Positions 39,467 through 53,632 are shown, numbered from the stretch's first letter. The stretch: DNA of 64,000 nt from Alphaproteobacteria bacterium (GCA_965237415.1 CBDEFM010000002.1:2272001-2336000); one strand, 5' to 3'. The notes: generated by a model from the sequence alone, not told the origin. Numbers and translations are program-made.

Positions 39467-39639
39467 ACCCGAACTATTCAGTGCGCCGTGGAAAGGCGCC
39501 GTCCCTCAGCGGGTGCGAACCCCGCCCGGCAACAGTCGCTCCAGCCGGTAGCAATCGGAGCGGTTGAAGGAGGCAACGACTTCGACTGAAGCACTTCGGT
39601 GTAACGGGCCGCCCTGGGCGGCTCAGCGACCATGCGGGC

Positions 39640-41552
39640 GTGTGCCAGGCTAACTGGCAGAGGATAGCCGGTGAGAGTCCGGTAGGGAGTAGAGGTTAAC
39701 CACCACTCTCGCCCCGAGTCATGCGCCGGTCGTCGCGAGGCGGCAGGTGAAGCGTTGACAGGGGTGCGGATGGGCAGGGCAACGGAGCATCGAAAGGTTG
39801 CTTGTCTGGAGAGCCGAGACTGTGCCTGCGGTCGAAGGCAACACCGACATCGCCGATATGGTGAGGGGATGTTGGGCTCCACGGTGTCGAAGAACCCATG
39901 CACGTTCGTACGTCCTCATTGCCGGGACCTGGGAGGTCTCCATTTTGCCCCGAAGTCGTAACGGGGCCGCAAAGGAAAGGATGTATCCGTAACCGATGAC
40001 GTACGGAATGGAGAAGTCGGATGAGGGAATAGTACCGATGAAAGCGACGAACAAGGGCGCGCAAGCGCCTGCGGAGTCGCCGGAGGGAAGTGCCTCAACC
40101 AAGGGGAATCTGCGAGATCAAAGCACGTGCCGGACGCAGTGTCGGGAAAGCGTGTCACAGGCGGTCGCGTGGATACGGCAGGCTGTAACGAGGAAACCGC
40201 AGGAGAAACTCACTGCGCTGCTACACCATGTCACGATAGATGCCCTGACGTGGGCGTTCTTCGAGTTGAAGAAGGACGCCTCGGCGGGGGTGGATGGGAT
40301 GACGTGGGGAGAGTACGAGGACGGGCTGGAAGAGCGGCTGCTCGACCTTCACGGACGCGTGCACTCGGGAGCGTATCGGGCGCGGCCATCCCGGCGGGTC
40401 GAAATACCCAAACCGGATGGCGGGACACGACCGCTCGGCATTGCCGCACTGGAAGACAAGATTGTCCAGAAAGCGGTGGTGGAAGTTATCCTGACGCCAA
40501 TTTACGAGCCGGATTTTCTCGGGTTCAGCTATGGGTTCCGACCGGGGCGTGGGGCGCACGACGCGCTTGATGCTCTGGCCTTCGGGATAGAACGGCGCAA
40601 GGTCAACTGGATAGTGGACTGTGACATCCGCGGATTTTTCGACAATGTCTCTCGGGACTGGCTGGTCCGGTTCCTTGAGGATCGCATCGGAGACAAGCGG
40701 GTCATCAGGCTGTTCGCCAAATGGCTGAATGCCGGCGTCATGGAAGATGGCGAGTGGCGGGATAACTTGCGAGGAACGCCTCAGGGCGCGGTGGCTTCAC
40801 CGATTCTCGCGAACATCTACCTGCACTACGTACTCGACCTCTGGTTCCAGAGGGAATGGCGCACCCGTGTGGCCACGGGGGAAACAATCATCGTGCGGTA
40901 TGCTGATGACTTCGTGGTCGGGTTCCAGCGCAAACAGGACGCGGAGCGGTTTCTCCACGATCTCAAGGAAAGGCTGGGCCAGTTTGAGCTTGAGTTGCAT
41001 CCAGACAAGACCCGACTCATCGAGTTTGGCAGGTTCGCGATGGCGGACCGCCGGGCACGAGGGGAACGGCGACCGGAGACCTTCGATTTCCTTGGATTCA
41101 CGCACTATTGCAGGAAGAAGAGGAACGGGAAATTCGGACTGGGGCGCAAGCCGATAGCGAAGCGGGTCACGCGGACCCTGAATCGGATCAAAGGGGAGCT
41201 CCGTAAGCGGATGCACGAAGATGTCCACGAAACCGCGCGCTGGCTGGGTCAGGTGGTCAATGGATGGCTGAACTATTTCGCCGTCCCGACCAGCAGCTCG
41301 GCCGCAAGGGGGTTTGTGCGGCGGCTCTCATGGATCTGGGTGAATGTCCTGCGAAGACGGTCACAGAAGGACCGGACCACGATCGCCGATGTCGTGCGCA
41401 TTGCCGCATTGCATTGGCCACCCGTCCAGGTTCGGCACCCTTGGCCGACGGTGCGTTTTGCCGTCAAACACCCGAGGTAGGAGCCCCGTGCCCCACCGGG
41501 CATGCGGGGATCTGAGCGGGGGGAGCGGGGTAACCCGCTTCCCTACCGCGAC
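39640..41552 (+). mobile_element. Group II intron (inner), copy 1, nested in domain I of the outer intron
   Basis: 5' GTGTG; domain V GAGCCCCGTG...CATGCGGGGATC; domain VI ending CTACCGCGAC. Confidence 0.9.
39996..41480 (+). CDS. ltrA: Intron-encoded RT/maturase (inner, no endonuclease domain)
   Basis: RPLGIAALEDKIVQ, GTPQG, RYADD, FDFLGF; true start may be further downstream. Confidence 0.93.
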   Translation: MTYGMEKSDEGIVPMKATNKGAQAPAESPEGSASTKGNLRDQSTCRTQCRESVSQAVAWIRQAVTRKPQEKLTALLHHVTIDALTWAFFELKKDASAGVDGMTWGEYEDGLEERLLDLHGRVHSGAYRARPSRRVEIPKPDGGTRPLGIAALEDKIVQKAVVEVILTPIYEPDFLGFSYGFRPGRGAHDALDALAFGIERRKVNWIVDCDIRGFFDNVSRDWLVRFLEDRIGDKRVIRLFAKWLNAGVMEDGEWRDNLRGTPQGAVASPILANIYLHYVLDLWFQREWRTRVATGETIIVRYADDFVVGFQRKQDAERFLHDLKERLGQFELELHPDKTRLIEFGRFAMADRRARGERRPETFDFLGFTHYCRKKRNGKFGLGRKPIAKRVTRTLNRIKGELRKRMHEDVHETARWLGQVVNGWLNYFAVPTSSSAARGFVRRLSWIWVNVLRRRSQKDRTTIADVVRIAALHWPPVQVRHPWPTVRFAVKHPR

Positions 41553-41681
41553 CGCAACGCGAGTGAACGCCGAGCAGGCCTCGAAACGGGCAACGCGGAG
41601 GCCGACCCGCCTGAATAACGGGGAAGGCTGCCATCGGTCGGGAAGAGGGCGACGCGCGCACCGACCGGCTCCGCCGGGGTA

Positions 41682-51286: not shown

Positions 51287-52053
51287 CCCTGCGACAACCC
51301 AATATCGATCGCCTGCTGCAGCTCGGCCTCAGCGGCATGGCCGAGGCGCTGGAGGAGCAGCACGACATCGCCGACGTCGACCAGCTCGGCTTCGACGACC
51401 GCCTCGCCATGATGATCGAGCGCGAAGCCGAGCACCGCGATCACAAGAGCTATCTCGGCCATCTGCGCCAGGCCCAGTTGCGCGTCCGCGCCGACGTCCA
51501 GGACGTCGACTGCCGCGCAGGGCGTGGCATCGCCCGGACCACGCTCACCCAGCTCGCGGCCGGCGACTGGATCCGCCAGGGCCACAATCTGATCCTGGGT
51601 GGGCCAACCGGGTCGGGAAAGACATTCGTCGCTTGTGCGCTCGCCCACCAGGCCTGCCGCCAGCACCAGTCCGTCCTCTACCGCCGCGTGCCCGAGCTGG
51701 TGGCGGCGCTCACCCGCGCCCGCGACAAAGGCACGCTCGAGCGCCTGATGGGCCGCCTGGGCAGGGTCTCCCTGCTGGTCCTCGACGACTGGGGCCTCCA
51801 CGGCTTCTCCACCGAGGGCCGGCGCGACCTGCTGGAGATCGTCGAGCAGCGCCACGGACGCAAGTCCATACTCATCGCCAGCCAGATCCCCGTGGAGGGC
51901 TGGCCGAAGGTGATCGGAGAGCCAACGATCGCGGACGCGGTCCTCGACCGCATCGTACACAACGCCTATCGCATTGAGCTCAAGGGAGAGTCCCAGCGCA
52001 AGCGCAACAAGCCCCCGCCACTCGACGGCGGCGGCAACAGAGCCCCGGCCTGA
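51283..52053 (+). CDS. istB: IS21 AAA+ helper ATPase
   Basis: GPTGSGKT, LVLDDWG, DAVLDRIVH. Confidence 0.94.
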   Translation: MTLRQPNIDRLLQLGLSGMAEALEEQHDIADVDQLGFDDRLAMMIEREAEHRDHKSYLGHLRQAQLRVRADVQDVDCRAGRGIARTTLTQLAAGDWIRQGHNLILGGPTGSGKTFVACALAHQACRQHQSVLYRRVPELVAALTRARDKGTLERLMGRLGRVSLLVLDDWGLHGFSTEGRRDLLEIVEQRHGRKSILIASQIPVEGWPKVIGEPTIADAVLDRIVHNAYRIELKGESQRKRNKPPPLDGGGNRAPA

Positions 52054-53632
52054 AGGCCGGGGTCCATGGGCGCCTGCGGCGCCTTCCAGGTTGCGAGGGC
52101 GGAGGTGCGCGCCGGCATGCTGTGTGAGAGCTTGCCGCCGCGCCCCGCCGGCCGTTTGCATGCCCAAGAGGCCTCGCATACGCTCGGCTCGGGCTGGCCA
52201 AAGGCCAGCCCCCTGACATCACCTGGGGGAGGGTCCCACCGCCAAATCCGGGAGAGACAGCGCGCTGGCGCGCGCCCGCGGCACGGTCAAGTGTTGCCAG
52301 AATCCCGGTCAAATAAAATCAGAACCGGCGGTCAAATAAACCGGAATCCGCACCCGGGCATCGGCAGCCCCGTCCTGCGCCCGCCCGGGCCCTGTGCGCG
52401 TCCGAACGCGCGCACGTCCTCGACGTGCTCGCCAGCCCGCGCTTCGTCGACCGGTCACCGGCCGAGGTCGTCGCGACGCTGCTCGATGAAGGCGAGTATC
52501 TGTGCGCCGAGCGCACGATGTACCGGATCCTGGCTGCGAACCAGCCGGTCCGAGAGCGGCGCAATCAGCTCAGCCATCCCTGCTACACCAAGCCCGAGCT
52601 GGTGGCCACGGCCCCCAACCAGACCTGGTCCTGGGACATCACCCGGCTCCGCGGGGCCAAACGCTGGACGTCCTTCTACCTCTACGTCCTGCTCGACATC
52701 TTCAGCCGCTACGTCGTGGGCTGGATGGTTGCCGACCGGGAGAACGCCGCGCTCGCCGCGACGCTGATCGAGGAAACCTGCCTCAAGCAAGACATCGAAC
52801 CCCAGGTGCTCACCCTGCATTCGGACCGCGGCGCGCCGATGACCAGCAAGTGCACCGCCCAACTCCTCGCCGATCTCGGGGTCACCCGCTCTCTGAGCCG
52901 CCCCCGGGTCAGCGACGACAACCCGTTCTCCGAAGCGCAGTTCAAGACCCTGAAATACCACCCCGGCTTCCCCGGTCGCTTCGAAAACATCACCGCTGCC
53001 ATCGCCTTCTGCCGGTCGTTCTTCCCCTGGTACAACACCGAGCACCGCCATGCCGGGATCGCGATGCTCACCCCCGACGATGTCCATCATCACCGGGCAT
53101 CGGATGTGCTGGCTCAGCGCGGACGGACCCTGCAAGCCGCCTGGGCCCTGCACCCCGAACGTTTCGTCCACGGCACCCCGAAACCCGACCCGCTTCCCGA
53201 AGCGGTCTGGATCAACCCACCCGCCACTCCCACAACAGGAGAAACGAGTCAGTAAATAGAAGCCGCCGGTGTCTCAAAATCGTTGACAGGTTCCGGGTTC
53301 GCACCCGCTGAGGGACGGCGCCTTTCCACGGCGCACTGAATAATTCGGGTTAGTCTGATGGTGATTGTGGTCAGGAGATGGCCTGAGTAGTCATCAGTTT
53401 GAAGATTGTCGACGCTCTGACTTTGTTTGCTCTCTGGAGTGATCTGGAATGGTCTTCTGTTTCCTTTGTTGCGGTGCCTATGTGGTACCTGGGAAATGGA
53501 TGCAGGAGAACTACACATTGAGCCGGGCGTTTTCTGAGCTATGGCCAGAAGTTGGTGACGGGGTGAAGGGTTAAGGCGGCGTATCGTGGGGGTGATCGAG
53601 CCTCCACTTCTCCAACGAAGGAGTGATACGCC

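Follow-up and report, generated by a model that had tools for sequence, protein, structure and literature searches.

Group II twintrons in both terminal inverted repeats of an IS1380-family insertion sequence from an alphaproteobacterial genome

A group II twintron in each inverted repeat of an IS1380-family element

A 64,000-nucleotide stretch of an Alphaproteobacteria bacterium genome (GCA_965237415.1 CBDEFM010000002.1:2272001-2336000), referred to here as the window, contains an IS1380-family insertion sequence (IS) with a group II intron in each of its terminal inverted repeats. Each of these outer introns is itself interrupted by a second, inner group II intron, making the pair a twintron. 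This arrangement is very probably the product of invasion of the IS, at both inverted repeats, by a retrohoming group II intron that has no recognisable endonuclease domain. The evidence comes from the anatomy of the element, from base pairing and covariation between intron and target, from intron-free relatives whose tips are intact, and from other hosts in which the 13-nt offset recurs. Positions are counted from the first letter of the window, and the host element is composed of the following features.

39468-53349: IS1380-family insertion sequence, 1,599 bp without its inserts
39464-39467: left flanking tetranucleotide TTAA, an NTAN-type IS target whose last base is exon position -14
39468-39480, plus strand: outer 13 nt of the left inverted repeat, CCCGAACTATTCA, the 5' exon of the left twintron, with the intron-binding site IBS1 at 39475-39480
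43376-44948, plus strand: interior of the IS, 1,573 bp, bounded by nt 14 of each inverted repeat
43481-44821, plus strand: intact transposase gene, 446 amino acids, matching NF033539 and PF13701
53337-53349, minus strand: outer 13 nt of the right inverted repeat, CCCGAATTATTCA, a near-copy of CCCGAACTATTCA
53350-53353: right flanking tetranucleotide TTAG

IS1380 elements have terminal inverted repeats beginning with CC and produce target duplications of 4-5 bp (ISfinder). The transposase places the host in this family, matching NF033539 with 409.3 bits against a cut-off of 180 and PF13701 with an E-value of 2.8e-150, in agreement with the initial annotation of this locus. At the left end, the tip at 39468-39480 is followed by the intron start GTGCG at 39481, and the IS picks up again with CGACA at 43376. 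At the right end, read on the minus strand, the tip runs from 53349 to 53337 and the IS picks up again with TGACA from 44948. Both junctions (39480/43376 and 53337/44948) split the inverted repeat after nt 13, with both introns pointing inward, exactly as initially described. The inserted sequence amounts to 3.9 kb at the left end and 8.4 kb at the right end. Once restored, the inverted repeats match at 16 of their first 18 positions. The pattern TARCCCNNNNNNTTCA has two matches in the window, which are exactly the two tips, against 0.11 expected, and CCCGAAYTATTCA occurs genome-wide only at these tips. The IS1380 element, the outer intron, and the 13-nt target are each found in this genome only at the studied locus, so both available targets are occupied.

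The outer intron and its protein

In the left arm, the outer intron totals 1,982 nt and lies in two segments on either side of the inner intron.

39481-39639, plus strand: 5' segment of the left outer intron, 159 nt, starting GTGCG and forming part of domain I; Rfam RF02003, 64.9 bits
41553-43375, plus strand: 3' segment of the left outer intron, with the rest of domain I, an open reading frame (ORF) in domain IV, and domains V and VI; ends CTCTAC
41682-43223, plus strand: outer intron ORF, 513 amino acids as listed; TIGR04416, 316.9 bits against a cut-off of 300; RVT_1 and GIIM, with YADD present

The outer intron combines a 5' GTGCG, a 3' end in CTCTAC, a domain V/VI region, a reverse transcriptase (RT)/maturase ORF, and pairing between exon-binding sites (EBS) and IBS, all of which are characteristic of group II introns. 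Its 3' segment also gives a partial RF02005 match at 41578-41680 (at a permissive threshold) and an RF00029 match at 43232-43375 (43.5 bits, cut-off 40). These domain I (RF02003, RF02005) and domain V/VI (RF00029) matches are mirrored on both strands of the window. The true start of the outer ORF is likely the ATG at 41874. Pfam matches within this ORF are limited to RVT_1 and GIIM, with no endonuclease domain detected.

Recognition of the IS tip by EBS1 and EBS2

Two short segments in domain I of the outer intron pair with the IS tip, the second of them being a proposed assignment.

41612-41617, plus strand: EBS1 TGAATA, within GCCGACCCGCCTGAATAACGGGGAAGGC, complementary to TATTCA of both IS tips
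41588-41591, plus strand: proposed EBS2 GGGC, four bases after GAAAC, pairing with exon positions -14 to -11

The intron RNA would read the tip through EBS1 on nt 8-13 (TATTCA) and through EBS2 on the first three tip bases, CCC, together with the last base of the NTAN flank. Because the inverted repeats are inverted copies of one sequence, they would present the same target once on each strand, with the resulting introns pointing inward. By analogy with the endonuclease-less introns RmInt1 and RmInt2 (PMC4615759), the intron may insert through reverse splicing into DNA, followed by cDNA synthesis primed at replication forks.

EBS1 forms 6/6 pairs in the window and falls in a 9-nt hairpin loop in the predicted fold of 41576-41684; this fold is no better than shuffled sequences (z = 0.2) and was used for the position of the EBS1 loop alone. 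EBS2 would form four of four pairs where the flank ends in G and three of four where it ends in A. Both ends of the window element have A at this base, giving three EBS2 pairs each.

Covariation was evaluated among relatives of the outer intron. A scan of the outer intron protein against one genome per species identified 404 relatives, and the best 80 loci, 73-88% identical, were analyzed (L-numbers denote these related loci and G-numbers denote genomes, G000 being the genome of the window). Together with the window they yielded 52 distinct target 13-mers, or 51 for EBS2, which were compared with 1,000 shuffles; this shuffle test was adopted after a first covariation score proved to be dominated by base composition. 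EBS1 and IBS1 (exon -6 to -1) form at least five of six pairs at 41 of the 52 sites, with a mean of 4.81 compared with 2.74 in shuffled sets (largest 3.23). EBS2 forms at least three of four pairs with exon -14 to -11 at 30/51 sites, with a mean of 2.75 against 1.96 (largest 2.29). The complementarity of the TGAATA loop to TATTCA, first noted in the window alone, is thus borne out by pairing and covariation over 52 sites. An earlier EBS2 candidate, UUCGG near 39590, which would pair with CCGAA of the tip, was dropped because the RF02003 alignment puts these bases in a stem; EBS2 is assigned to 41588-41591 instead because covariation points there. The result is a clear target rule, in which an EBS2 of 4 nt and an EBS1 of 6 nt read one flank base and 13 nt of the tip. 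If this rule holds in assays, the lineage would offer natural retargeting variants with which to study target changes in endonuclease-less introns.

Intron-free relatives and occupied tips in other genomes

An intron-free IS of the same kind would be expected to share the restored ends of the window element. The genome G041, from the same order, contains five intron-free IS1380 copies that are 85-88% identical to it, and all five have the predicted contiguous tips, reading NTAN followed by CCCG(G/A)ATTATTCA|CG... on the left with a matching right end. Flanking tetranucleotides are equal in three of the five copies, and the other two are mismatched like those of the window element.

A second set of informative copies occurs in G001, where the host is an IS1634-family element (NF033559, 280.7 bits against a cut-off of 100) present at 22 places. 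Among 21 readable left tips, 17 are intact (NTAN + CCCATCTTTAACA|CAGG...) and four carry the intron after nt 13, whereas 20/21 right tips are intact and one carries the intron. Intron-free full copies in G001 have equal 4-bp duplications in 15 of 16 cases. In this genome, the only one that permitted the comparison, the IS part of L081, which bears the intron, matches that of the intron-free L082 at 100% identity but that of L090, another intron-bearing copy, at only 98%. This pattern fits homing into resident copies.

These identities bear on the proposal, one of two alternatives given in the initial annotation, that the intron rides the IS. An intron-armed transposon of this kind would keep the outermost 13 bp of the IS and still transpose with the twintrons as cargo. 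The transposase ORF of the window element is intact and its true termini are kept, and an intron lineage found in genomes labelled as many phyla needs some vehicle. Against this, the IS occurs once and the outer intron as a single pair of copies within it in the genome of the window, and the G001 identities tie an intron-bearing copy to an intron-free one more closely than to another intron-bearing one. Binding by DDE transposases usually requires parts of the inverted repeat further in than nt 13, and these positions now lie 3.9 kb and 8.4 kb away. With the repeats split in this way, recognition of the ends is probably blocked and this IS copy would probably be immobile. Transposition with the introns as cargo is therefore unsupported and considered unlikely, and homing of the intron into resident IS copies is the reading retained. 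If the split inverted repeats do silence the IS, introns of this type would act as a natural brake on transposons.

The 13-nt offset extends beyond these two hosts. In L011 and L012 (about 5636-7885), the intron lies 13 nt from the left tip of a 263-bp element that resembles a miniature inverted-repeat transposable element (MITE), with inverted repeats of roughly 35 bp. Similarity between L011 and L012 stops at the tips of this element, which has unequal flanks (CCAG/CTAG and TTAG/CTAG). In L013 and L036, an IS1634-family transposase is found immediately on the inward side of the intron. Many related intron copies follow NTAN and ~13 conserved bases, beyond which the upstream sequences are unrelated. 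Downstream of 17 of 77 intron copies there is a reverse-complement 13-mer with no more than two mismatches, compared with 7/77 for a control 13-mer taken from further upstream, a weak difference as a raw count. Partner repeats with at most one mismatch, at fixed distances and followed by NTAN, are found in ten loci (L011, L012, L051, L052, L053, L056, L064, L072, L074, and L078), and the upstream and partner-side tetranucleotides are equal in seven of them.

Mapping of the related copies thus upholds the initial suggestion that this intron targets transposon ends, since the offset recurs in IS1634-family and MITE-like tips. Restriction of the lineage to IS1380 was considered and rejected, as only 4/80 loci (L003, L013, L041, and L063) match the window transposase (tblastn, E <= 1e-5), and some copies sit beside host genes. 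The outer intron lineage is not strictly an IS-tip specialist.

Outer-type copies also occur head-to-tail, in L015 (5713-9676) and L052 (5637-9632), where the second copy starts directly after the CTCTAC of the first; head-to-tail or near-tandem copies are also present in L033 and L037. In a midpoint-rooted FastTree phylogeny of 60 distinct intron proteins, introns with EBS2 GGGC fall into at least three separate groups, a pattern from which no inference on ancestry is drawn. The metagenome-assembled genomes (MAGs) that contain the relatives are labelled as Alphaproteobacteria, Binatia, Terriglobia/Acidobacteria, Rhodobacterales, Nitrospinota, Thermodesulfobacteriota, and others. Among plasmid-borne relatives, the best are ~54% identical to the outer intron protein, and no annotated transposase was found beside the three inspected (H1, H4, and H12) in plasmid gene tables that are incomplete.

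In four metagenome runs, the summed contig depth over 39489-39677, 41568-41945, and 43080-43457 exceeds that over the IS interior by a factor of tens. Contig depth is not copy number, and the excess suggests many related intron copies in these communities.

A nearly clonal inner intron within domain I

The inner intron interrupts domain I of the outer intron and contains its own ORF.

39640-41552, plus strand: left inner intron, 1,913 nt, GTGTG...GAC, in domain I of the outer intron; RF02005, 166.7 bits
39996-41480, plus strand: inner intron ORF, 494 amino acids as listed, RT/maturase; TIGR04416, 359.8 bits against a cut-off of 300; RVT_1

Across both ORFs, Pfam matches are confined to RVT_1 and GIIM, and no endonuclease domain was detected in the inner ORF. 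The boundaries at 39640 and 41552 are fixed by alignments of two inner-type copies from the same genome (76% identical), which begin and stop exactly there. An outer-type fragment, G000:C2:3039437-3039671, is unbroken across the 39639/41553 junction. In addition, contigs in 4/4 public runs from four studies (2, 4, 3, and 2 contigs) join 39638 to 41552 and skip 1,913 nt. D5- and D6-like hairpins of the inner intron lie at 41481-41549, and its last 75 nt fold into two hairpins (z = -4.3). With both inner ends, an ORF, and domains V and VI present, and with the outer sequence contiguous once the inner intron is removed, the initial description of the locus as a twintron is confirmed.

The second intron lies at nt 159/160 of each outer intron, in domain I, where an EBS1-like loop of the inner intron, GCCUGC, can pair with GCGGGC just before the insertion point. 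This match to the nt 159/160 site suggests that the inner intron parasitises the outer lineage. In another MAG, inner introns 98.8-99.0% identical over 1,913 nt occupy the same domain I site. These copies are L016, L041, L042, and L046, with a partial one in L040, and the outer introns that host them encode proteins only 74-84% identical to that of the window. The near-identity of the inner intron against this divergence of its hosts suggests a parasite that has spread recently through the outer intron lineage.

The inner-type introns elsewhere in the genome of the window are two, at G000:C1:672010-673941 and G000:C2:2258143-2259975, with 76% nucleotide and 70% amino acid identity to the inner intron. 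They have a different target (exon ends ...ATGGA), and neither is nested in another intron. The outer-type fragment mentioned above, G000:C2:3039437-3039671, is a 235-nt 5' fragment with 75% identity. The EBS1-like loop of this fragment, GAGAAAT, matches the upstream exon ...ATTTCTC, before which stand CTAG and CCC; the fragment resembles the degenerate remnant of a copy in another IS-like tip.

A broader interpretation of the outer intron is more tentative and, on balance, doubtful. Under it, the outer intron would belong to a horizontally spreading lineage, present in MAGs labelled as at least six phyla and specialised on the extreme tips of IS1380- and IS1634-type elements and MITEs. EBS2 would be fixed on the target-duplication base plus CCC, and EBS1 would be re-tuned for each IS. 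Such programmable tip-targeting would split and restrain ISs, and the lineage would itself be parasitised by the nearly clonal inner intron.

The right arm and differences between the two arms

On the right, the intron is encoded on the minus strand between 53336 and 44949 and has been interrupted by further elements.

44949-46771, minus strand: 3' segment of the right outer intron, mirror of 41553-43375 with 17 differences
46772-48684, minus strand: right inner intron, mirror of 39640-41552 with 0 differences; ORF 46844-48328
48685-48804, minus strand: nt 40-159 of the 5' segment of the right outer intron, separated from the first nucleotides by the IS3-like insertion
48805-53294, plus strand: IS3-like element, 4,490 bp, in domain I of the right outer intron; orfA 48876-49364 and orfB 52425-53255
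49469-52352, plus strand: IS21-family element within the IS3-like element; istA 49691-51286 and istB 51283-52053
53295-53336, minus strand: first 42 nt of the right outer intron, the last three bases being the duplicated GGG

The right outer ORF (45101-46642) is intact and 99.0% identical to the left one. The IS3-like element is bounded by a 3-bp duplication, GGG, at 48802-48804 and 53295-53297. Its orfB gives an NF033516 score of 156.1 bits, just below the cut-off of 160, and a Pfam rve score of 77.2 bits; orfA matches HTH_Tnp_1. The gene of this element is split by the IS21-family element, which has a 6-bp duplication, CCCGGG, at 49463-49468 and 52353-52358, and TTTGACCG motifs repeated at both ends. 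Assignment to IS21 follows from IstA (NF033546, 244.5 bits against a cut-off of 160), IstB (PF01695, 210.7 bits), and the multiple terminal repeats. The IS3-like element would have landed in the right outer intron after the twintron was in place, with IS21 landing in the IS3-like element subsequently. Because domain I is broken by the IS3-like insertion, the right outer ribozyme can presumably no longer fold and would be dead. The outcome is a five-level nest, with IS21 in IS3 in the outer intron, which also hosts the inner intron, in IS1380. It calls for caution in annotation pipelines, which would report the region as several unrelated genes.

The two arms are mirror images, as the initial annotation stated in describing ~3.86-kb inverted arms, with two qualifications: they are not identical, and the right twintron is interrupted by the 4,490-bp IS3-like element with its IS21 passenger. 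Comparison of 39520-43380 with 44944-48804 reveals 18 differences, 17 of which lie in 42127-43303 and one at 43376 (BLAST identity 99.53%), although a repeat search listed the pair at 100%. The first 2,607 nt (39520-42126), including the whole inner intron, are identical between arms, while the last 1,249 nt carry the 17 differences. This uneven spread indicates some DNA exchange between arms or donors. A single 22-nt segment (42419-42440) contains eight of these 17 differences, a cluster that may mark a short tract converted by a third copy not seen here.

These differences speak directly to the integrity of the assembly. Long inverted repeats are a classic source of mis-assembly, and arms of 3.9 kb could arise from mis-joined reads of one intron copy, leaving one end of the IS or neither truly occupied; the support consists of contigs, and none of those listed spans the whole stretch. 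The 18 differences, clustered in 42127-43303, and the IS3/IS21 nest in the right arm only, where it is bounded by clean duplications of 3 bp and 6 bp, speak against one arm being an assembly duplicate of the other. Both junctions also fall exactly at the site predicted from the EBS pairing, and other assemblies likewise have an IS used at its two ends. An assembly artefact is accordingly judged extremely improbable.

The same differences are relevant to the number of homing events. In an alternative scenario, the intron homed only once, and either recombination or gene conversion between the ends, or else the fusion of two IS copies, produced the second copy. The contrast between 2,607 identical nt and 17 differences in 1,249 nt, which shows DNA exchange between arms or donors, is in line with this scenario, as are the unequal flanking tetranucleotides. 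The ends, however, at first shared only ~18 bp of inverted homology, too little for efficient conversion over 3.9 kb, and in G001 the intron occupies a left tip in some IS copies and, independently, a right tip in another. RmInt2, moreover, homes experimentally into both target orientations (PMC4615759). A single homing event is thus very unlikely, and separate invasion of both inverted repeats remains the favoured explanation.

Several points weigh against this explanation. The uneven arm differences need gene conversion or chimeric donors, and two clean independent homings are insufficient alone to account for them. The IS1380 flanks, TTAA on the left and TTAG on the right, do not form an exact duplication, and the element may have been rearranged or may combine ends from two copies. 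The EBS2 assignment fails at 21/51 sites, where at most two of four pairs form, and other copies of the intron adjoin host genes (ispG, thrC, and a LarA-like gene) or have unrelated targets. Flank searches in 41 related genomes found no empty site or intron-free allele of this exact IS copy; the left flank gave weak matches only and the right flank itself consists of repeats. This result is no evidence either way. The data supporting the assembly of the inverted arms are Logan contigs.

One contig of 1,977 nt, from run X1, matches 43376-44948 apart from 14 differing letters. The match ends precisely at 43376, although the contig record extends for a further 341 letters, a hint of an allele that lacks this intron.

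Comparison with known introns

The closest precedent is RmInt2 of Sinorhizobium meliloti GR4. The natural copies of RmInt2 all lie in the left or right inverted repeat of ISRm17 (Martinez-Rodriguez et al. 2014, PMC4615759), an IS placed in the ISNCY family (PMC10194956). The same study reports retrohoming assays, EBS2 pairing of 4-5 bp, an IBS region from -14 to +1, and head-to-tail products, and its authors remark on control of IS mobility (PMC4615759); a 2018 review repeats the account (PMC5894124). Homing into IS ends is therefore an already published strategy, and the initial presentation of such targeting as new biology does not stand.

Like RmInt2, which lacks an endonuclease domain, the outer intron has no recognisable one, and it has two targets per IS on opposite strands. 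It further resembles RmInt2 in its short EBS2 pairing with a linker before IBS1, an IBS region of about -14 to +1, and head-to-tail copies. RmInt2 belongs to class D, and the class D C-terminal motif quoted for it, LX3AX3PXLF[V/A]HW, is absent from the 513-amino-acid outer ORF in a regular-expression search. This absence, together with plasmid relatives that are only ~54% identical, indicates that the outer intron represents another lineage. Its hosts also differ from ISRm17, as they comprise IS1380- and IS1634-family elements and a MITE-like element. Both ends of a single IS are occupied here, and the copies are twintrons, features that set the locus apart from the RmInt2/ISRm17 system.

RmInt1 has its target within ISRm2011-2 and is contrasted with the use of inverted repeats by RmInt2 (PMC5894124); replication-fork-biased mobility is known for RmInt1-type introns (PMC4615759). 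The outer intron resembles RmInt1 in using a repeated mobile element as a harmless landing site, but has two sites per IS, whereas RmInt1 has one. Bacterial twintrons are known as well, for example in Thermosynechococcus elongatus (Mohr et al. 2010, PMC2882425). As in those, the window has an intron within an intron, and the inner one would have to be removed before the outer one folds. In contrast to the T. elongatus example, the inner intron here is 98.8-99.0% identical across MAGs and the pair sits in IS tips.

No literature linking group II introns to IS1380 was found by title or abstract. New here are the independent intron lineage, the new host IS families, the double occupancy by twintrons, and the breadth across MAGs. 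A strategy described for one class D intron in one rhizobial strain is thereby extended from RmInt2/ISRm17 to an unrelated lineage, to IS1380 and IS1634 elements, and to many uncultured bacteria.

Genomic surroundings

To the left of the IS1380 nest lies a Usp-like gene (38709-39383, minus strand; Pfam Usp). A complete rRNA operon (54356-59828, minus strand), consisting of 16S, two tRNAs, 23S, 5S, and one tRNA, is located ~1 kb from the right end of the nest. The window also contains a second, intron-free IS1380-family transposase gene (31221-32558) with 51% amino acid identity to the studied one; a simple scan found no clear terminal repeats around it. The right flank of the IS consists of two short repeats, 53535-53992 and 53991-54185. 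Within the genome of the window, the first recurs at 98% identity and the second at 84-96%. Copies of the first at 99% identity are also present in G048 and at nine or more places in G005, and many relatives have copies of the second at ~80%. These right-flank repeats (53535-54185) are probably further small mobile elements.

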